The position numbers were made by a program, and so were the translations under genes. Positions 1 to 16,932 of a stretch of 64,000 bases of DNA are shown piece after piece. Position 1 is the stretch's first letter; every line of letters begins with the position of its first letter. Source of the stretch: Clostridia bacterium (lineage in GTDB: Bacteria > Bacillota > Clostridia > JAAYHZ01); NCBI GenBank assembly GCA_050950825.1, contig JBMNIH010000002.1, positions 320,001 through 384,000 on the forward strand, given 5' to 3'. Below the pieces are notes generated by a model. It was given only the letters and a program-made list of their open reading frames with translations. It had not been told where the DNA came from and did no database searches.

Positions 1-578
1 TCATATGTCGAAATGCCGGATTGGGGCGGAGGACAAAAGTTATCCGCCGTATGTAGACCCGAAAATCCGTAATCGGAAAGCACCTCGCATACCTTGTCCG
101 CAAAGTAATCTTCGTAATAAGTTCCGTCCTTGAAGCGTTTTAATACGTGTAGAGAATAAACGGCAACACCGGAAGGATTGGCAATTCGGGTCAATAGCTC
201 GCGCCGGTCTGCATACCATTCTTTATGACGTGCACTGTTGGTTGAAACACCCATAATACCCAAAAGCGGCTTTATTCCGGCCTTGTTTAAGTGTTCGACA
301 AGTATTTTTAAATCGATGTTCGTCCAGTTTTGCCTTTCTCTTTCTTCGTTTCTCGGGCTGCCGTAATAGGAGCAATTGTCAGGCGGCAGATGCCGAACAC
401 GATCCGTTCCGTCATGCAAGTGTACAATATCCGCATGAAACAGGAAAACGGATACGGCATCCGGGATAAACCCCATACGTGAAATCAGCTCCCCTACCCC
501 CTTGTCGGGCTTATCCCGATCAAATCCGATTAAAGGCATCCAAACCCATTGTGAACCGGCTGCGGTATTTTCACCCAT
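1..578 (-). CDS. Hypothetical protein, 5' part only (runs off the left edge)
   Basis: Not in the ORF track. ATG at 578 follows AAAGGAGG; the frame MGENTAAGSQWVWMPLIGFDRDKPDKG...HTADNFCPPPQ stays open to position 1. Confidence 0.75.
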   Translation of the reverse strand, partial: MGENTAAGSQWVWMPLIGFDRDKPDKGVGELISRMGFIPDAVSVFLFHADIVHLHDGTDRVRHLPPDNCSYYGSPRNEERERQNWTNIDLKILVEHLNKAGIKPLLGIMGVSTNSARHKEWYADRRELLTRIANPSGVAVYSLHVLKRFKDGTYYEDYFADKVCEVLSDYGFSGLHTADNFCPPPQSGISTY

Positions 579-5307: not shown

Positions 5308-6238
5308 TTATAAAACATAATCGGTTATACAGTCATACCGGTGAACATAGGTTTCACCGTTAATATAGACAATTTCATTTTGCAGCAGTCTTTCACTCCA
5401 CTTTTGTCGGTATTTTTTGTAGGTCCAATCATCTTTATTATATCTTCGCCGGAGCACGGTTCTGCCGTTTTTATCGAGATATGTTTGTGTCATCAAGCCG
5501 CCGGTACAGCTTTCAATGCCAACAACCAAAATGGTATCATAGGTCTTACCTCCGATTATAACCTCATAGCGCCCAACAACATCAAGTGCATCTTTTTCTT
5601 TTGCAGGTTATCCTGTCGCCGTCCGGAGTAACTATGCCTTTAGGCTTGATATGCGTTTCTTTTCCACAGTTATCTATGCCATAACCCCAATTTTTAAGGA
5701 AATCTTCATCTAAAAAGGTATCGGTATGTTTGACATCTCCGACATAATGAGATTCAAGTAAAATCCGGCAGTGTTCTGAAGTTTTGCTTCGCCTTGTGCA
5801 AACGACTCTTAACTGTGCCCAAGGGTATACCTAGCGCTTTTGCAATTTCTTTTTGAGGTTTTTGCTTAAAATAGTAAAGATACGGTATTTGCTTTTCTTT
5901 ATCGACAAGGCTCGACAGAGTTTCGTTAACCACTTCATTTACGGTTAAGCCTACTCGTGAAAATGAAGTTTCATAAAGGATGTTTTCATCAAGCGGCAGT
6001 TCAAGTTCTTTAGCCTTTCCCCGGTAAAAGTCATTGATTTTATTCCCGGCAATAGCGATGATCCAAGGTTTGAATTTATCTTTATTGCTTAACGTGTCGA
6101 AATTTGAGAAGGCCGCAAGATACACTGCCTGCAGAATGTCTTCTCCATCGGTCTTATTATTTACTTTATAGAATACCGGGCGCTCAAGAGCGTTTTACAT
6201 GTGTTTAACAAATCTTCAAATTCTTTTCGCTTATCCAA
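5308..6238 (-). pseudogene. Decayed ECF sigma-70 factor with a long C-terminal extension
   Basis: TTG start after GGGGTGA (MDKRKEFEDLL). Frameshift before region 2 (GEDILQAVYLAAF...FKPWIIAIAGN). Region 4 is EIAKALGIPLGTVKSRLHKAK. Further frameshifted pieces follow (FLDEDFLKNWGYG, DVVGRYEVIIGGKTYDTI, YLDKNGRTVLRRRYN...YVHRYDCITDYVL). Confidence 0.75.
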
Positions 6239-8658: not shown

Positions 8659-8697
8659 ACCGCCACAATCTGCCGGTATCGGGCAGATTGTGGCGGT
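8659..8697 (-). terminator. Intrinsic terminator of hppA
   Basis: ACCGCCACAATCTGCC / GGCAGATTGTGGCGGT stem followed on the minus strand by a T-rich tail. Confidence 0.8.
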
Positions 8698-8762: not shown

Positions 8763-10895
8763 TTATCGGATGAGTGTGAAGTTTCTGAAAATATTAACCA
8801 GTGTATTCGCAACCGTTGACATTGTCTTGATAAAGATATCAAGGGCAACACCGACGACGTCTTTTCGTGTATCGCCGACAGTATCACCGGTAACCGCTGA
8901 TTTATGCGCTGCCGTTCCTTTGCCGTGTCCCTCCAGAGCTCCGGATTCGATATACTTTTTCGCATTATCAAACGCTCCACCGGAATTTCCCATAAAGATG
9001 GCACGCGGAATAGCGACAATCGTAGCTCCAATCAGCAAGCCACCGACAAATTCAACACCGAAAATAAATCCGCCCAGCACAGGAATTAACATAGCCAATA
9101 CGGAAGGGAACAGCATTTTACGGAGAGCTCCCTGTGTTGCCATCTGAATCATACGGTTATAATCCGGGCGAACTTTACCTTCCATGACACCGGGAACAGA
9201 CAGAAGTTTGTCGCCTTCATCAGCCATTGCACGTGCAGATTCAATCGTATTGTCCGTTAGAATTGCGCTGAAGTATTCTACCAAGGCACCGCCGATTACC
9301 GCACCGGCAACCACGGTGAAGCTGGCAATATTCAGAATCATTTCCGCATTTGCAGGAGTGTAATTACCGACATATGAAACGATCAAGCTTACCGTTGCAA
9401 AAGCGGCGCTGCCAATGGCGAAACCCTTACCGATAGCTGCGGTCGTATTACCGACGGCATCCAGTTTATCCGTAATCACGCGAACTTTATCGGGAAGGTG
9501 GCAGCTTTCAGCCAAACCACCGGCATTATCGGCAATCGGTCCGAACGCGTCAATGGAAACCGTTGTGCCAACGAAAGCGAGCATACCGAGAGATGCTACG
9601 GCAATACCATAGGTACCGCCTATTCTTCCGCTGACGAAAAGTGCGATACCGATCATCAGAATCGGCAGCAGACAGCTACGGCTTCCGATTGCGTCACCTT
9701 TGGTAATAACAAAGGCATCGCCCTCGGGTGCCATTTCGGCAAGTTTCCTGGTAGGTTTAAAGTCAGAAGAAGTATAATATTCGGTAATGGATCCGATTGC
9801 CACACCGCTGGCGAGACCGAGCACCGCGCAGATCCAAGGGCTTAACCAGCTTGCTCTCCATCCGTATGTTTCCAATGTGGCGGCATCGATCTTTCCGAAG
9901 ATAAGCCAAGATGCTCCCAGGCCAAGAATAACCGTTAATCCCGCAGAGATCCAGGTGGCCAGATTCAATTCGTGAGAAGGATCGTTTCCCATCTTTTTAA
10001 CATTCGCATACAGCATACCGATCAGGCAGCTCAACAAACCTGCTCCCGCAAGTATGATCGGGAAGATCACAGTCGGATTGAACATTTGTTCGATGTTGAA
10101 TTTCTCGAACATAATTACGGCAATCATGATGGTAGCGGACATCGTCGCAACAAAACTCTCAAGAAGGTCCGAGCAATTGCCGGCAATATCATTGACATTG
10201 TCCCCGATGAAGTCGGCAATAACATTCGGAATCCTGCTGTCGTCTTCAGGAAGGTCATTCCGGATTTTTCCTAGAATATCAGCGGAAATATCCGCAGCTT
10301 TTGTATAGTTGCCGCCTGCGACACGGTTGAACATGGCTACCAAAGAACATCCGAGCGAGTATGTTGATACACGCATTATGGAAGCGTTGACTCCTTGGAG
10401 GCGAGTCAGCAGACCGCCGCCATCCGCTTGGTGTGTGACTCCGCCCCAAATCAGCAGAACCGCAACCAGACCGAACATTCCGAAAGCTTGAACGCTCAAA
10501 CCGGAGATGCTGCCTCCGCACAACGCCACCTTAACAGTATCACCTATGGACATGCTTTCACGTGCTTTATTTGCCGTTCTTACGTTAGCGTATGTAGCGC
10601 TTTTCATCCCAAGTACGCACGCACAGCTGCTCATGGCGGCACCAACCAAGAAAGTAATACCGGCGGTTTTTTCTACAAAAAGTGATAAAGTCAATGAAAT
10701 CAAAACAACAACAATGGAAATGGTTTTATATTCGGTTTTCATGAATGCATTCGCACCGGAACGGATGATTGCAGCCATTTCAACCATATCTGCTGTTCCC
10801 TCAGGCATTTTGCGGATCCGGATATAATTCCAGGCTACATATGCGAGGGTTACCGCAATGATACACAGTACAGTGATGATCCAAGTGAGAGACAT
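8763..10895 (-). CDS. hppA: Membrane-bound ion-translocating pyrophosphatase (K+-dependent signature, divergent)
   Basis: Polytopic membrane protein with YTKAAD, PEDD, GDNV, DAFGPIADNAGG, LDAVGNTTAAIGKGFAIGSA, GGAFDNAKK, GDTVGD. Ala in GNTTAA is the K+-dependent signature. Start MSLTWII after AAAGGAAGG. Confidence 0.93.
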   Translation of the reverse strand: MSLTWIITVLCIIAVTLAYVAWNYIRIRKMPEGTADMVEMAAIIRSGANAFMKTEYKTISIVVVLISLTLSLFVEKTAGITFLVGAAMSSCACVLGMKSATYANVRTANKARESMSIGDTVKVALCGGSISGLSVQAFGMFGLVAVLLIWGGVTHQADGGGLLTRLQGVNASIMRVSTYSLGCSLVAMFNRVAGGNYTKAADISADILGKIRNDLPEDDSRIPNVIADFIGDNVNDIAGNCSDLLESFVATMSATIMIAVIMFEKFNIEQMFNPTVIFPIILAGAGLLSCLIGMLYANVKKMGNDPSHELNLATWISAGLTVILGLGASWLIFGKIDAATLETYGWRASWLSPWICAVLGLASGVAIGSITEYYTSSDFKPTRKLAEMAPEGDAFVITKGDAIGSRSCLLPILMIGIALFVSGRIGGTYGIAVASLGMLAFVGTTVSIDAFGPIADNAGGLAESCHLPDKVRVITDKLDAVGNTTAAIGKGFAIGSAAFATVSLIVSYVGNYTPANAEMILNIASFTVVAGAVIGGALVEYFSAILTDNTIESARAMADEGDKLLSVPGVMEGKVRPDYNRMIQMATQGALRKMLFPSVLAMLIPVLGGFIFGVEFVGGLLIGATIVAIPRAIFMGNSGGAFDNAKKYIESGALEGHGKGTAAHKSAVTGDTVGDTRKDVVGVALDIFIKTMSTVANTLVNIFRNFTLIR

Positions 10896-11123
10896 TTTCT
10901 TTCCTTCCTTTCTCTTTTCCCTTTTGGTTTTGCATCGATGTATCGGTTTGTTCCAAGTCAAGAAATAACTGCCGGGGAAACGCTTTTATTTCCCACAGTT
11001 GACTCAGAACCTTTCACATTATACTACATTTTGCCGCTAATTTTCCGGAAAGAATAAGCAGTAACAGAATGATTCATTACGAGATACGCAATACCATGAT
11101 ATAATACCTGTATCCATTCGGAG

Positions 11124-12206
11124 GTGAGCATTACGGATCGATTAAGAGCATTTCTTCAAAAAAATCAAATAGTAAAAAATGCACTTATCCTTGTGTTAAC
11201 GCTTGGCGCAACACTCGGACTTACGATACTTTTGTCTTTCATCAATGACGATAACAACCCCTTTGCTATGGCTGTTTTTATTATGGCTGTGGTCATTGTG
11301 GCCCGTTGGACAGACGGGTACATTTGGGGAATAGTTGCTGCTCTCATAGGTACATTTTGCGTAAACTATATTTTCACCTATCCGTTTTGGACATTCAGTA
11401 TCGACTATACAGGATATCCTCTGACTTTTACGGTCATGCTGATTGTATCGATACTGATCAGTACACTGACTACACAGATCAAACAGCAGGAACGGCTTCG
11501 GTTTGACATTGAACGAGAAAAAATGTACTCCAATTTATTGCGTGCGATTGCTCATGATTTGCGCACACCTTTGACTGCCATTATCGGGGCGAGTTCAACA
11601 ATACAAGAGCAGGAATTATCTGCTGACGATCTGATCCGTCTTGCGGAAGGTATCCGCAAAGATGCGGAATGGCTTGTACGTGTAACTGAAAATCTGTTGT
11701 CTGTCACTCGTGTCAGCGATCACGGTATGATAAAAAAAGAGGATGAAGTATTGGAAGAGATTATAGGCAGTGCAATTATGAAATATCATCGGTTCCCGGA
11801 TTCTTTGCCTGTGGAATCCGACACACTTAAAGATATTATTCTTGTTCCGATGGAGGCAATGTTAATCGAACAGGTTTTGATTAATTTGTTCGACAATGTG
11901 AATGCCCATGCGGAAGGTGCTTCAAAAATTTGGATTCACCTCAAGAAAGAGAATGGCAAGGTTTTTATCTCTGTTGAAGATGACGGATGCGGTATTCCGA
12001 CGTCATTATTACCTCAGATTCTTGACGGAACATATCTGTCCAAACGCAGCAGAAGCGATGATCGGCGTAGCATGGGAATAGGGCTGTCCGTATGCAGGTC
12101 CATCATCGAAGCACATGAAGGACAATTGTCTGCCGGGAAGAGCCGTCATGGCGGTGCCGCATTTGTTTTCTCATTACCGTGTAAGGAGAATATGTATGTC
12201 GAATAA
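11124..12206 (+). CDS. kdpD: Minimal KdpD-like sensor histidine kinase (DUF4118 membrane domain + HisKA + HATPase)
   Basis: Four TM segments ending NYIFTYPFWTF, then NLLRAIAHDLRTPL, LIEQVLINLFDN, EDDGCGI, GIGLSVCRSIIEAHEG. No N-terminal KdpD/Usp or GAF domain. Confidence 0.8.
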   Translation: MSITDRLRAFLQKNQIVKNALILVLTLGATLGLTILLSFINDDNNPFAMAVFIMAVVIVARWTDGYIWGIVAALIGTFCVNYIFTYPFWTFSIDYTGYPLTFTVMLIVSILISTLTTQIKQQERLRFDIEREKMYSNLLRAIAHDLRTPLTAIIGASSTIQEQELSADDLIRLAEGIRKDAEWLVRVTENLLSVTRVSDHGMIKKEDEVLEEIIGSAIMKYHRFPDSLPVESDTLKDIILVPMEAMLIEQVLINLFDNVNAHAEGASKIWIHLKKENGKVFISVEDDGCGIPTSLLPQILDGTYLSKRSRSDDRRSMGIGLSVCRSIIEAHEGQLSAGKSRHGGAAFVFSLPCKENMYVE

Positions 12207-12924
12207 GATTCTTCAGAAGATTTTGATTATTGAGGACGATCCGGGTATTCTGAATTATCTGAAAACAACCGTTGAAGCGGCCGGATATGAAACCGTTACG
12301 GCAACCGATGGAAAATTAGCACTCCATATGATTACTTCTCACTGTCCCGATTGCATTTTGCTTGATCTTGGACTTCCGGATATGGATGGGAGTGATATCA
12401 TAACAAGCGTCCGAAAATGGACATTGACCCCCATCATCGTGATTTCTGCGCGAAGCTCGGAAGAAAACAAGGCGCTCGCCTTGGACTCCGGGGCGGATGA
12501 TTATATAACGAAGCCCTTTGGTTCGATCGAATTGCTTGCCCGTATACGAACGGCATTGAGGCATTCACTCATCGCAGCAGAGAACAAAGAAATCGGAATA
12601 GACGGTTGTTATCATGTCGGGGAGCTGGAAATTGACTATAAAAAGTTAAGAGTGTGTGTGCGCGGGAAAGATGTTCATCTGACTCCGAACGAATTCAGAA
12701 TCGTAGCTCTACTGGGCAAACATCCGGGGCGTGTGCTTACATATAAATCGATATTGCGGGAGCTTTGGGGCCCCTCCGCCCCTATGGATAATAAAATTTT
12801 ACGTGTTCATATGGCCAGTATCCGCAGAAAGATTGAAAAAGATCCGACGAACCCTCAGTACATTTTCACAGAGGTTGGCGTGGGCTACAGAATTGCGGAG
12901 AACACGCAGGAGACCGACTATTAA
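12196..12924 (+). CDS. kdpE: KdpE-like OmpR-family response regulator
   Basis: IIEDD, LLDLGLPDMDG, VISAR, GADDYITKPF, winged helix LRVHMASIRRKIEKDPTNPQYIFTEVGVGYR; overlaps the kinase stop. Confidence 0.85.
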   Translation: MSNKILQKILIIEDDPGILNYLKTTVEAAGYETVTATDGKLALHMITSHCPDCILLDLGLPDMDGSDIITSVRKWTLTPIIVISARSSEENKALALDSGADDYITKPFGSIELLARIRTALRHSLIAAENKEIGIDGCYHVGELEIDYKKLRVCVRGKDVHLTPNEFRIVALLGKHPGRVLTYKSILRELWGPSAPMDNKILRVHMASIRRKIEKDPTNPQYIFTEVGVGYRIAENTQETDY

Positions 12925-13058: not shown

Positions 13059-14447
13059 GATAGTGTCTTGTCAAGTGGTGTAAAATGATTTCTACTTTAT
13101 CTTCCCTTCGTTTCATTTATGTAAGATAGCAATCGGAGCTAATGAAAACCCATTAGCCTGTGTAAGCTTTTCCATAGATTCTAAACTGAAGTATCGCCGC
13201 CCTACCTGCCATTCATCGTTCTGCTCCATAAGCATAGTACCTACAAGGCGAATAACGGCATCACGATTAGGAAATATGCATACAACATCAGTCCGACGGC
13301 GTATCTCACGATTAAGCCGTTCCAATGGATTCGTAGAATGAATCTGTATCCAATGCTCACGGGGAAAGGCCATATACGCCAATATATCCTCTTCGGCTGC
13401 TTCAAGGATTTCCATTGCTTTCGGAAAACGCCCCCTCAGTTCATCTACCACATGTCTTAGCTGTTCCCTTGCGGATTCCTGATCATTTTGTGCAAAAATG
13501 GTGCGTATGATTGAGGAGACCATTCCTTGGCACTTCTTCGGCACTTGGCTTAATACGTTCCGCATAAAATGTACTCGGCATCTTTGCCATGTGCTCCCGG
13601 TTAAAACCTTCTTTATGGCGGATTTTAACCCCTCATGGGCATCACTTACAACTAACTTCACCCCTTTAAGTCCCCTTGCTACAAGCTTTCTCAGAAACTC
13701 TTCCCAAAAAGCTCCGTCTTCACTCATGCCGACATCAAAACCTAGTATCTCTCGTTCACCGGACTGATTTACACCTACGGCTATTACAAGTGCCATACTG
13801 CATACTCTTCCACCTTCACGAACCTTAGGAAAAGTAGCATCAAGCCAAAGATAAGGGTATTCTCCTTCGAGTATGCGGTTCTTGAACTCGGTGACAAAGC
13901 CATCCAATTGCTTGCTGATCCCGGAAACTTCGCTTTTATCCATCCCTTTAATTCCGAGAGATTCTACCAACTCATCTACTTTTCTAGTGCTGACACCGTG
14001 CACATAAGCTTCCTGCACCACATTTAATAAAGCTTTTTCTGACATCTTCCGAGGCTCTAATAAACTTGGGAAATAGCTTCCATGCCTCAATTTGGGTATG
14101 CTTAACTGTAACGTACCAAGGCGAGTATCCCATTCTCTTTGTCGGTATCCATTACGATGATTGTTCCGATTCTCACTTCGTTCATACTTTTCCGCACCGA
14201 TCATCGACGTAACTTCCGCATCCATCAGAGCATTGATTAACAGCGTAAGCGCTTCCTTTAAAAAATCCTTATCTTTTTCAACAACATACTTGCTAAGTTG
14301 CTCTAAAAGTGACATTCTATTATTAGTAGCCACGGTATGACCTCCTTTACTTTATCTTTTTTGTGATCTAATAAAGTAAAAATCATATGGTGGTTACTCT
14401 TGTCAAGCATACTCCACGAAATTTACACCACTACTTAAGACTATAAC
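13059..14447 (-). mobile_element. IS256 family insertion sequence
   Basis: Imperfect terminal IRs: GATAGTGTCTTGTCAAGTGGTGTAAA (13059-13084) and the reverse complement of 14422-14447, GTTATAGTCTTAAGTAGTGGTGTAAA. No target duplication visible. Confidence 0.88.
13113..14333 (-). CDS. IS256 family transposase
   Basis: RNGYR, YLWLDA, VVSDAHEGL, WQRCRVHF, STNPLERLNREIRRR. Confidence 0.95.
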   Translation of the reverse strand: MATNNRMSLLEQLSKYVVEKDKDFLKEALTLLINALMDAEVTSMIGAEKYERSENRNNHRNGYRQREWDTRLGTLQLSIPKLRHGSYFPSLLEPRKMSEKALLNVVQEAYVHGVSTRKVDELVESLGIKGMDKSEVSGISKQLDGFVTEFKNRILEGEYPYLWLDATFPKVREGGRVCSMALVIAVGVNQSGEREILGFDVGMSEDGAFWEEFLRKLVARGLKGVKLVVSDAHEGLKSAIKKVLTGSTWQRCRVHFMRNVLSQVPKKCQGMVSSIIRTIFAQNDQESAREQLRHVVDELRGRFPKAMEILEAAEEDILAYMAFPREHWIQIHSTNPLERLNREIRRRTDVVCIFPNRDAVIRLVGTMLMEQNDEWQVGRRYFSLESMEKLTQANGFSLAPIAILHK

Positions 14448-15225: not shown

Positions 15226-16932
15226 GCTCATTTGAAAAAGTAAATTCTACCCCCCGAGATACCTAATGTGGAATTTACTTTTTCAAATTCAGAAGTGGAA
15301 TTTAGTTTTTCAAAAAGGTAAGATGTTTATGGTGGTGCCTCTTTTGGAGGTACATATGAACAAGAACAAACATTTGACCTTGGAGGATAGGAATACTATT
15401 GAACTAAGATTAAAGGAAAGAGAATCCTTCAAAGCTATTGGACGTGAGCTTGGCAAGGATCCAACTACTATCGCTAAAGAAGTTAAAAACCACCTTCAGT
15501 TTAAAAAGACCGGTTGCTATGGAAAAGCCTTTAATGACTGCCGCATTAGAAAAAACTGTACTGTACGGCATCTTTGTGGCAGCAAAAGGTGCAGACGTTA
15601 CTGCTGCTTCTGTAACACCCATTTTTGTTCGACACTTTGCCCTGATTACCGGCAGGAAACATGTCAAAGACTTTCAAAGTCTCCTTATGTCTGCAATGGC
15701 TGCGAAGTCAAAACTTCCTGTACGCTGGAAAAAAGAACTTACTCTGCACTGCATGCGCAAAGAGAATACGAAGCAGTCCGTTCAGAGTCACGTCAGGGCG
15801 TACAACTAACCGAAGAAGATGCGCTGAGACTGGATTCTCTTATCAGCCCTCTCATTATGAAAGGCCAGTCTCTCCACCACATATGTGTTAGTCATGCAGA
15901 TGAAATCATGCTCAATGAACGCACTCTCTACAACTATGTGGACAAAGGCTTCTTTGCAGCCAGAAATATTGATATGCCTCGTGTTGTACGAATGGGAAAA
16001 CGCAAGAGGAAGAATGAACAGTTCAAGGTGGACAAGAAATGCCGGAACGGTCGCGCTTATCAGGATTTCCTTAAATTTATGGAGGAACATCCCGGGCTTC
16101 CTGTCGTTGAAATGGATACGGTCGAAGGAAGAAAAGGCGGCAAAGTGCTGTTGACGCTGCATTTTACCATACCTCAGCTAATGCTCGCATTTATCCGGGA
16201 TGCCAATACTTCACAGTCCGTTATTGACGTGTTCGATAGGCTTTACAAAGGACTTAATCCGGATGTATTTCGCAGCTTGTTTCAAGTGCTTCTCGGGGAT
16301 AATGGTAGTGAATTCTCCAATCCATCTGCCATTGAAATGGATTCTCAGGGAAAACAAAGGACCCGAATTTTTTATTGTGACCCTCAGGCGTCATATCAGA
16401 AAGGTGCAGCTGAAAACAACCATACGCTGATCAGACGTATAATCCCCAAGGGAACATCACTTGACAATTTTACGCAGGAGGACATAACACTTATGATGAA
16501 TCACATTAATTCCTACAAAAGACTCAATCTCGGTGATAAAAGCCCTTATGAAGTCTTCTCTTCCCTTTACGGTGAAGAAATCCTAAAAAAGATGGACGTG
16601 GAACCTATCGCGTCAGATATGGTCATCCTTCGTCCATCCCTTCTTAAAAAATAAAACTTTAATAAAGAGGCACCACCTGCCGTAACTTCATAAATACACA
16701 ATAAACAGGGGTGGAATTTACTCTTGCAAAAAGTGAGCTAACATTTCACCCTTTATTTAGTGCACCCTAAAAACGGTTGGTTTTGCGCTCTTTACTCATA
16801 TTTTATACTATTCATAAGTAAAAGTCACTGAAAATAAACCTTATTTTATTGCTGGATTAATATTGTTTTCTCCCGGTTTCAGAATCTGTGGAATTTACTT
16901 ACGCAAAGTGGAATTTAACTTTTCAATTCACC
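15226..16932 (+). mobile_element. IS30 family insertion sequence (1707 bp) with 13-bp flanking direct repeats
   Basis: Imperfect IRs GCTCATTTGAAAAAGTAAATTCTAC and GGTGAATTGAAAAGTTAAATTCCAC (reverse complement); AAAAGCCGGATCT at 15213-15225 and 16933-16945. Confidence 0.9.
15356..16654 (+). CDS. IS30 family transposase with a Cys-rich insertion
   Basis: HLTLEDR HTH, EMDTVEG, GDNGSEF, YQKGAAENNH DDE motifs; start MNKNKHL after GGAGG. Confidence 0.93.
   Translation: MNKNKHLTLEDRNTIELRLKERESFKAIGRELGKDPTTIAKEVKNHLQFKKTGCYGKAFNDCRIRKNCTVRHLCGSKRCRRYCCFCNTHFCSTLCPDYRQETCQRLSKSPYVCNGCEVKTSCTLEKRTYSALHAQREYEAVRSESRQGVQLTEEDALRLDSLISPLIMKGQSLHHICVSHADEIMLNERTLYNYVDKGFFAARNIDMPRVVRMGKRKRKNEQFKVDKKCRNGRAYQDFLKFMEEHPGLPVVEMDTVEGRKGGKVLLTLHFTIPQLMLAFIRDANTSQSVIDVFDRLYKGLNPDVFRSLFQVLLGDNGSEFSNPSAIEMDSQGKQRTRIFYCDPQASYQKGAAENNHTLIRRIIPKGTSLDNFTQEDITLMMNHINSYKRLNLGDKSPYEVFSSLYGEEILKKMDVEPIASDMVILRPSLLKK

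Follow-up and report, generated by a model that had tools for sequence, protein, structure and literature searches.

What does a KdpD/KdpE-like two-component system control in a genome with no Kdp pump? The question is raised by a locus in a Clostridia bacterium (assembly GCA_050950825.1), where hppA, a gene for a membrane pyrophosphatase (mPPase), is transcribed divergently from a sensor kinase-response regulator pair resembling kdpD-kdpE. The locus lies within a 64,000-nucleotide stretch of contig JBMNIH010000002.1 (positions 320,001 to 384,000), hereafter the window. A preliminary description had noted this arrangement across some 230 bp, together with a perfect -10 and a non-consensus -35 ahead of hppA, and had proposed that the mPPase depends on an activator and stands in for the Kdp-ATPase. 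The gap measured 228 bp (10896-11123), the domains were confirmed by profile, and both promoter hexamers, TATAAT and GGAAAA (11041-11046), were found in place. The hppA start required correction: the position originally assigned, 10961, is an upstream TTG, and relatives, whose proteins are 710 amino acids (aa) long, begin at the ATG listed in Table 1. The results described below show that the locus is a real, previously unannotated regulatory cassette and indicate that hppA is very probably activated directly by the KdpE-like regulator through a predicted 18-bp box.

Alignment of the intergenic regions revealed one strongly conserved block, terminating in TATAAT. It contains a direct repeat with an 11-bp period, consensus TTT[CG]CG[GA]-AAAA-TTAGCNN, that ends exactly 10 bp upstream of the -10 and spans the -35 position of the hppA promoter; the GGAAAA hexamer falls inside it. 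PhoB-activated promoters carry a 7-4-7 pho box likewise ending 10 bp before the -10. OmpR-family regulators bind direct repeats, and the repeat recognized by Clostridioides difficile RR_1586 has an 11-bp period (PMC6222199). The window box was the best site in the 3.55-Mb genome, scoring 29.6 bits with a matrix that includes the window site itself; the next site scored 22.2 bits and had no -10. Matrix and pattern scans found no second boxed promoter in this genome, and a wider box regulon was dismissed for it. A sigma-70 scan omitted the hppA promoter, as expected in the absence of a -35.

The distribution of the box followed that of the kinase. A scan of one genome per species returned at least 778 stretches related to hppA, of which the best 79 loci were kept for analysis, 78 with upstream DNA. 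Where hppA has a divergent kinase, at eight loci, the box was always present and a consensus -35 always absent. The box occurred in just two of the 70 loci without such a kinase, L006 and L034, 91-92% relatives whose shared DNA ends at or within the kinase (L034 retains a kinase remnant). An ordinary promoter, TTG[AC][CAT]-17..19-(-10), preceded hppA at 35 of these 70 loci compared to 2.2 in shuffles, and in L001 and L005 the kinase is lost and TTGCAA replaces the box. The least circular test of the box is that of the hppA-trained matrix on distant kinases (48-65% identical) not associated with hppA: a box 10 bp from a -10 and directed away from the kinase was found at 13 of 16 loci, the 13 matches representing seven distinct promoters and the three misses two contig ends and one apparent insertion sequence (IS) insertion. 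A pattern combining box and -10 matched 28 of the 30 genomes that encode the kinase or a small protein described below and 3 of 20 controls from the family, and matched 4 of 50 when reversed, the first count being partly circular as the pattern was written after most positive promoters were seen. Because the activator-type box is conserved and is the best site in the genome, the regulator very probably acts on hppA directly, in keeping with the activator dependence first suggested. No Rfam family was found near hppA in 14 loci, and riboswitch control was set aside.

The divergent kinase adjoins hppA in 8 of the 79 best loci, five at 88-93% hppA identity and three, in rumen-titled records, at 79%. 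In L018 the kinase lies downstream of hppA on the same strand, and at one further locus a 39% identical kinase lies 5 kb off. Starting from the kinase, all 20 metagenome loci with a kinase at least 84% identical carried a divergent hppA between differing flanks; many of them are near-identical strains and not 20 independent events. Two other families in a 399-genome sample of the class had an 89-90% identical kinase, probably in records already among the 79 loci, and a genome of the window's own genus gave no match. The DNA common to the cassette relatives extends from ~8640/8736 to ~12920, at 86-89% identity. Since it comprises just the three genes, with changing flanks, hppA, kinase and regulator form a portable unit of which the neighboring IS256 element is not part. 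Record titles point to digester and rumen as habitats. Separately, the hppA clade occurs, at 68-77% identity, in four Saccharibacteria-titled records (L030, L056, L057 and L074); the flanks common to three of them (histidyl-tRNA synthetase) suggest a genuine transfer out of gut Clostridia-like hosts.

Table 1. Features of the cassette in the window, and examples of the small membrane protein gene at other loci.
Feature	Position	Strand	Remarks
hppA	8763..10895	minus	710 aa; ATG 10895, stop 8763; PF03030, 640 bits
Kinase gene	11124..12206	plus	GTG start; 360 aa; DUF4118 + HisKA + HATPase_c only
Regulator gene, KdpE-like, OmpR family	12196..12924	plus	Receiver + Trans_reg_C; start overlaps kinase stop
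IS256-family transposase	13113..14333	minus	Outside the shared unit
-10 hexamer TATAAT, hppA promoter	11018..11023	minus	From sequence; kept in cassette relatives
Predicted regulator box TTTCCGG-AAAA-TTAGCGG	11034..11051	minus	7-4-7 direct repeat, 11-bp period
Probable -10 TATAAT, kinase-regulator operon	11100..11105	plus	From sequence; block kept in close relatives; putative
Intrinsic terminator-like hairpin after hppA	8659..8697	minus	16-bp stem + T run; consensus scan
Small membrane protein gene, examples	L101:4478-4642; L041:5763-5927; L112:5618-5782	minus; plus; minus	Nearly always behind the box

Both proteins of the putative signaling pair resemble KdpD and KdpE at a distance. The kinase has the four-helix DUF4118 membrane domain and the HisKA/HATPase core of KdpD, and its best PDB matches were KdpD structures (6LGQ and 2KSF). 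Compared with the KdpD architecture (PMC11018627), the 360-aa protein gave no Pfam match to the N-terminal KdpD, Usp or GAF domains, and it scored far under the cut-off of the KdpD model NF007793 (167 vs 1123). The regulator, a receiver joined to an OmpR winged helix, had KdpE (NF007820) as its best model, at 198 against a cut-off of 325. The K+ loop of the kinase is partly kept, P-x-x-T-F-x-I versus P-x-x-T-L-x-V in Escherichia coli; in 70 distinct kinase loops the Pro was found in 69 and Phe or Leu in 68. The external K+ site of KdpD is formed by four residues in the second periplasmic loop (10.1101/2023.07.05.547876). Low K+, high Na+ and NH4+ are reported stimuli of KdpD systems (PMC5401905).

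The match of HppA to PF03030 covers residues 15-696 and far exceeds the cut-off of 29.7 bits; the best match of known structure was the Na+-PPase of Thermotoga maritima (PDB 4AV3 and related; 617 bits). The catalytic and funnel residues K199, D202, E217, D218, D219, D228, D232, D236, D243, K490, D643, K646, K647, D671, D675, K678 and D679 were conserved in 87 of 87 clade sequences, and D206 in 86. So were the Na+ gate residues D243 (6.50), E246 (6.53), S247 (6.54) and K690 (16.50), with D686 (16.46) in 86 of 87; S5.43 is conserved as well. The motif GNTTAA[IV]GKG places A486 at 12.46 and G489 at 12.49, as in K+-dependent mPPases, which have Ala at 12.46 and Gly or Ala at 12.49 (PMC10897367). 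In described enzymes, Na+ is liganded by D6.50, E6.53, S6.54 and D16.46 with K16.50, and the known cargo is only Na+/Li+ and H+ (PMC5150537); characterized mPPases are outward pumps that carry H+ and/or Na+ from the cytoplasm (PMC9408878). Judging from these residues, HppA would be a K+-activated exporter of Na+ or of Na+ and H+, with Na+ export, accompanied or not by H+, a probable activity and H+-only pumping a possible one. K+ import, one of the two ways in which the pump had been thought to replace Kdp, is unsupported: the gate is that of a Na+-PPase and the transport described for characterized enzymes is outward.

The hppA clade is nonetheless divergent. It branches as sister to the Thermotoga-type Na+-PPases on a long stem (0.82), with invariant changes at positions common to both outgroup types (N229F, V230I, G235N, G241C, L631R, W642F, P676T, T680V, P683V) and with R677, N240 and, in 82 of 87 sequences, N697 (16.57) as further clade residues. 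By a numbering derived from anchors in PMC6882861, these substitutions sit on helices 6, 15 and 16. Its best NCBIfam subfamily model is NF001954, and here HppA scores below the threshold (745 vs 894); it passes NF001960 (610 vs 546). A K12.46 enzyme passes NF001960 too (792); therefore, the pumped ion cannot be read from this label.

The window genome (97% complete) carries a single DUF4118 gene. A search of the whole genome, made in place of a Pfam scan of the entire 64-kb window, found no KdpA, KUP or PF13520/KimA-type gene. The initial statement that K+ transporter genes are missing had been made for the window; in the genome, one trkH-trkA pair lies elsewhere, on contig C6. Contig C10 carries another hppA, of the canonical type, 48% identical to that of the window and passing the NF001954 cut-off (1009). 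The window hppA is therefore an extra, beside a K+ uptake system (TrkAH) and a housekeeping mPPase. The suggestion that the pump energizes K+ uptake stays plausible.

Distant members of the kinase subfamily appear to have another target. At loci of the 48-65% identical kinases, a conserved gene for a ~55-aa membrane protein lies downstream of the box; in L041, L047 and L052 it stands between the box and hppA. The protein, of which 41 representatives were collected, matched no Pfam family and gave no usable Atlas match, and the predicted model is a helix-turn-helix hairpin (predicted local distance difference test score, 84). No copy was found in the window genome. Fifty hppA-clade genomes, drawn from the 79 loci, included 7 with a kinase at least 46% identical and 6 with the small protein, all 6 also having the kinase; in G448, where the small-protein gene and the kinase lie on separate contigs, the box is found with the former. 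In a family sample of 201 genomes, the small protein was present in 24 and the hppA clade in 34, with both in 5 (about 4 expected by chance); for 14 of the 24, no mPPase match was obtained at 1e-60. The chance-level co-occurrence and these 14 genomes ruled out the small protein as an mPPase subunit. The 55-aa protein is likely the ancestral, conserved effector of this kinase subfamily; in a FastTree phylogeny, the digester kinases nest among those regulating it.

On such a background, mPPase genes seem to have been recruited repeatedly. Cassette hppAs fall into two clades set apart by well-supported branches, and a single grouping was rejected by the approximately unbiased test (p 5e-58, 33 sequences; the group tested was chosen after a first tree was seen). 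In G477, box and small gene are followed at once by the gene of an unrelated mPPase (34% identity) with the K12.46/T12.49 signature of K+ independence. Unless many losses are assumed, mPPase genes would have come under this sensor about three times.

Other genes were seen behind the box or next to such cassettes. Unlinked boxes precede tctB-tctA in two genomes (L251:1665-3748, plus strand, with an apparent decayed small gene ahead, and L253:1139-3115, plus strand) and an 18-aa peptide in one. Single-helix peptides of 26 and 18 aa follow the box in L107, L109 and L198, after the small protein, and in L252 (~3870-3815, minus strand); in size they may resemble KdpF. The K12.46/T12.49 type of mPPase (L247:4556-6589, plus strand, and L257-L270) occurs in 15 of 50 genomes searched and has a gate without E6.53, D16.46 and K16.50, reading FDSN and INTQITVV. 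Genes resembling PF04018 undecaprenyl-phosphate translocases follow the cassette in two lineages (L247:6552-7439, plus strand; L052:540-1406, minus strand), and DUF1538 and P-II-like genes follow the regulator in L041 and L052.

The wider kinase family provided indications on the signal. The 399-genome sample yielded 30 matches in 29 other genomes, all short kinases of ~360 aa, 36-46% identical and accompanied by KdpE-like regulators. Twenty-nine regions (L150-L178) were fetched in addition to those of the two close kinases, and 68 of their 199 neighboring open reading frames (ORFs), picked by eye, were scanned. Neighbors included a Na/Pi cotransporter at 10 of the 29 loci, TrkH at 5, pyruvate kinase at 5, CitMHS at 3 and the beta subunit of a decarboxylase Na+ pump at 2, besides YitT, Na+ symporters, antiporters, CNNM and, in one operon, a PiT transporter. 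A Glu (E117) motif marks K+-type pyruvate kinases. All five pyruvate kinases carry it, which by this rule excluded them as K+-independent substitutes. Many of these genes, including trkH-trkA, Na/Pi cotransporter, pyruvate kinase and CitMHS genes, and the kinase operons are preceded by a repeat related to the box (such as TTAACCG-CATC-TTAACCG, 9-10 bp from TATAAT); a pattern drawn from the same 29 loci gave 20 matches in 17 of them, against 1.1 in local shuffles and none in 64 hppA-only loci. A KdpA gene turned up in just one of the 47 genomes that have this kinase family or the small protein, a figure with no background rate for comparison, and TrkH in 5 of 5 cassette genomes. Together, these genes describe what looks like a Kdp-independent regulon centered on cation-coupled and K+-using proteins. 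Mainly because of this, we lean toward a K+/Na+ imbalance as the signal.

We propose that the kinase responds, at the membrane, to a disturbed balance of monovalent cations, most likely a shortage of K+ or an excess of Na+ or NH4+ over K+, and, its domains being intact, phosphorylates the KdpE-like regulator. The latter would bind the 7-4-7 repeat, which covers the -35 region, and so activate hppA, the step for which comparative genomics argues most strongly. HppA would export Na+, and possibly H+, with PPi as energy source and K+ as activator. On induction, the housekeeping PPi pump would be joined by a second one; Na+ would be expelled and the membrane charged, and the charge would also drive K+ uptake through TrkAH. 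The 55-aa hairpin protein would be the older target, lost in the window lineage, where hppA is the sole boxed promoter found. Taken as a whole, this mechanism of inducible Na+ export under K+/Na+ imbalance stands at about even chances.

Several observations weigh against it. The expectation that kinase and regulator would be conserved neighbors of hppA held from the kinase side, in several families, and failed from the other: 70 of 78 hppA-clade loci have no adjacent divergent kinase, 43 of 50 genomes tested have no close one, several close relatives of the cassette have shed it, and three of the 20 metagenome cassettes have it frameshifted. The small protein, as the apparent older target, makes the link of the sensor to hppA weaker than first proposed; the TctBA targets fit the scheme poorly, and multiple losses could mimic multiple captures. 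In the kinase, GAF is absent and the residue aligned to KdpD T469 varies (Thr in 13 of the 70 loops). The commonest neighbor in the wider family is the Na/Pi cotransporter, and the circularity of the two pattern counts given above lowers their worth. As for the pump, the gate residues alone do not fix the ion, because one type of H+-PPase that depends on K+ has E6.53 as well (PMC6882861, Table 1). By the A12.46 rule, finally, the enzyme should need K+, which is awkward if it is induced when K+ is low.

Some of these points would be accounted for if the same wiring answered a different signal, such as phosphate shortage, low Na+ or pH, with HppA recovering energy or phosphate from PPi. The Na/Pi cotransporters, the PiT operon, the many Na+-coupled symporters and the partial conservation of the K+ loop all agree with this; still, trkH and K+-type pyruvate kinase each occur at 5 of the same 29 loci, both halves of the kinase are nearest to KdpD among solved structures, and one captured pump (G477) is of the K+-independent type, so that we consider such a signal unlikely. 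A distinct doubt concerns the cargo. With regulation as described, the clade might now pump H+, or be partly uncoupled and mainly clear PPi. Na+-PPases have given rise to H+ pumps on several occasions, and the enzyme can become uncoupled through changes at 16.57 (PMC6882861), a precedent that gives weight to the long stem branch, the invariant changes and N697. Set against these are the conservation of all Na+ ligands, of S5.43 and of every catalytic residue checked, and a switch of this kind strikes us as quite unlikely.

The association might also be void of meaning, hppA having fallen by accident behind a small-protein promoter. The majority of the clade is constitutive, close relatives have discarded the kinase and regained a -35, and small protein and hppA clade co-occur at chance level. 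It is nevertheless improbable that about three separate mPPase captures were all incidental, or that kinase, regulator, box and hppA would travel together through three families, at ~87% DNA identity, in the absence of the small protein. That the pump itself moves K+ or NH4+ is very improbable. A re-tuned or widened cation site might let an mPPase export these ions in K+- and ammonium-rich rumen or digester fluid, and the control by a KdpD relative, the lack of Kdp, the odd invariant residues flanking the gate and the habitats all invite the thought. However, the gate ligands are identical to those of the Thermotoga Na+-PPase, the only known cargo is Na+/Li+ and H+ (PMC5150537), moved outward (PMC9408878), and a literature search turned up no K+-pumping mPPase. 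The inward version, as a Kdp substitute, needs a reversed mechanism and accounts for a small fraction of that already slight likelihood. Lastly, the position of IS256, 190 bp past the regulator, had raised the prospect that the true target lay downstream and was removed by this element. This is hardly credible, as relatives free of the IS have unrelated genes there and the box faces hppA. Inducible Na+ export by HppA under cation imbalance is thus the reading we prefer.

Metatranscriptome contigs from biogas plants and sludge (4 runs of 24 listed) cover parts of all three cassette genes at 95-100% identity; in the same 4 runs no contig covered 7800-8680. Such contigs give no level, strand or start, and may include DNA carry-over. 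The hairpin after hppA is argued by its position and 16-pair stem alone, the terminator scan having found 6 candidates compared to 4.9 in shuffles. Two further copies of the IS256 element, 99.8% identical, lie on contigs C8 and C11, and a second transposase-like ORF (HTH_38) at 15266-16654 suggests an insertion hot spot beside the cassette. In addition, an ORF at 5754-6125 (minus strand) resembles by eye the C-terminal part of an ECF sigma factor. No pyruvate kinase was found in the genome with one query, which is compatible with PPi-centered glycolysis, and its second decarboxylase beta gene (C10:19807-20896) aligns as two pieces and is possibly frameshifted.

In the literature searched, with subscription papers mostly beyond reach, neither the control of an mPPase by a KdpD-like sensor nor this box was described; the hppA clade itself may already be drawn in a published mPPase tree. 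The unit offers a ready test of how KdpD-type sensors are used by anaerobes devoid of Kdp, since kinase and regulator come with an operator defined to 18 bp and a single output gene. Repeated recruitment of mPPases under one sensor would point to a stress role, in a field where little is known about the regulation of bacterial mPPases. The long-branch clade, with its 778 or more matches, is one whose ion specificity is worth measuring, and the unannotated 55-aa protein deserves attention as the candidate effector of the kinase subfamily. Were NH4+ the trigger, the system would bear on ammonia tolerance in biogas plants; were K+ or NH4+ exported, no mPPase before HppA would have been known to carry anything but H+ or Na+/Li+.

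Among known systems, the closest to the window pair is KdpD/KdpE of E. coli, M. smegmatis and C. acetobutylicum, with which it shares DUF4118, the KdpD-type core, a regulator best matched by KdpE and a divergent promoter with an activator site. It differs in the short kinase, in both proteins scoring under the model cut-offs and in the absence of a Kdp pump. In place of kdpFABC, the apparent targets are the small membrane protein, mPPases and TctBA and, in the wider family, Trk, the Na/Pi cotransporter and pyruvate kinase. The box has the geometry of the PhoB pho box and differs from it in repeat sequence and sensor; the same differences separate it from the RR_1586 repeat, likened here by description and having the 11-bp period in common. 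The pump agrees with the T. maritima Na+-PPase in R5.50, K5.58, D6.35/39/43/50, E6.53, S6.54, A12.46, G12.49, K12.50, D16.39, D16.46 and K16.50, whereas its clade is substituted in the DNVGDNVGD and DPLKDTVGP motifs and, in the cassette, placed under two-component control. The Na+-regulated H+-PPases of the Chlorobium limicola type likewise form a divergent branch and are K+-independent (PMC6882861, Table 1); the window clade, with Ala and not Lys at 12.46, is far closer to the Thermotoga enzyme.

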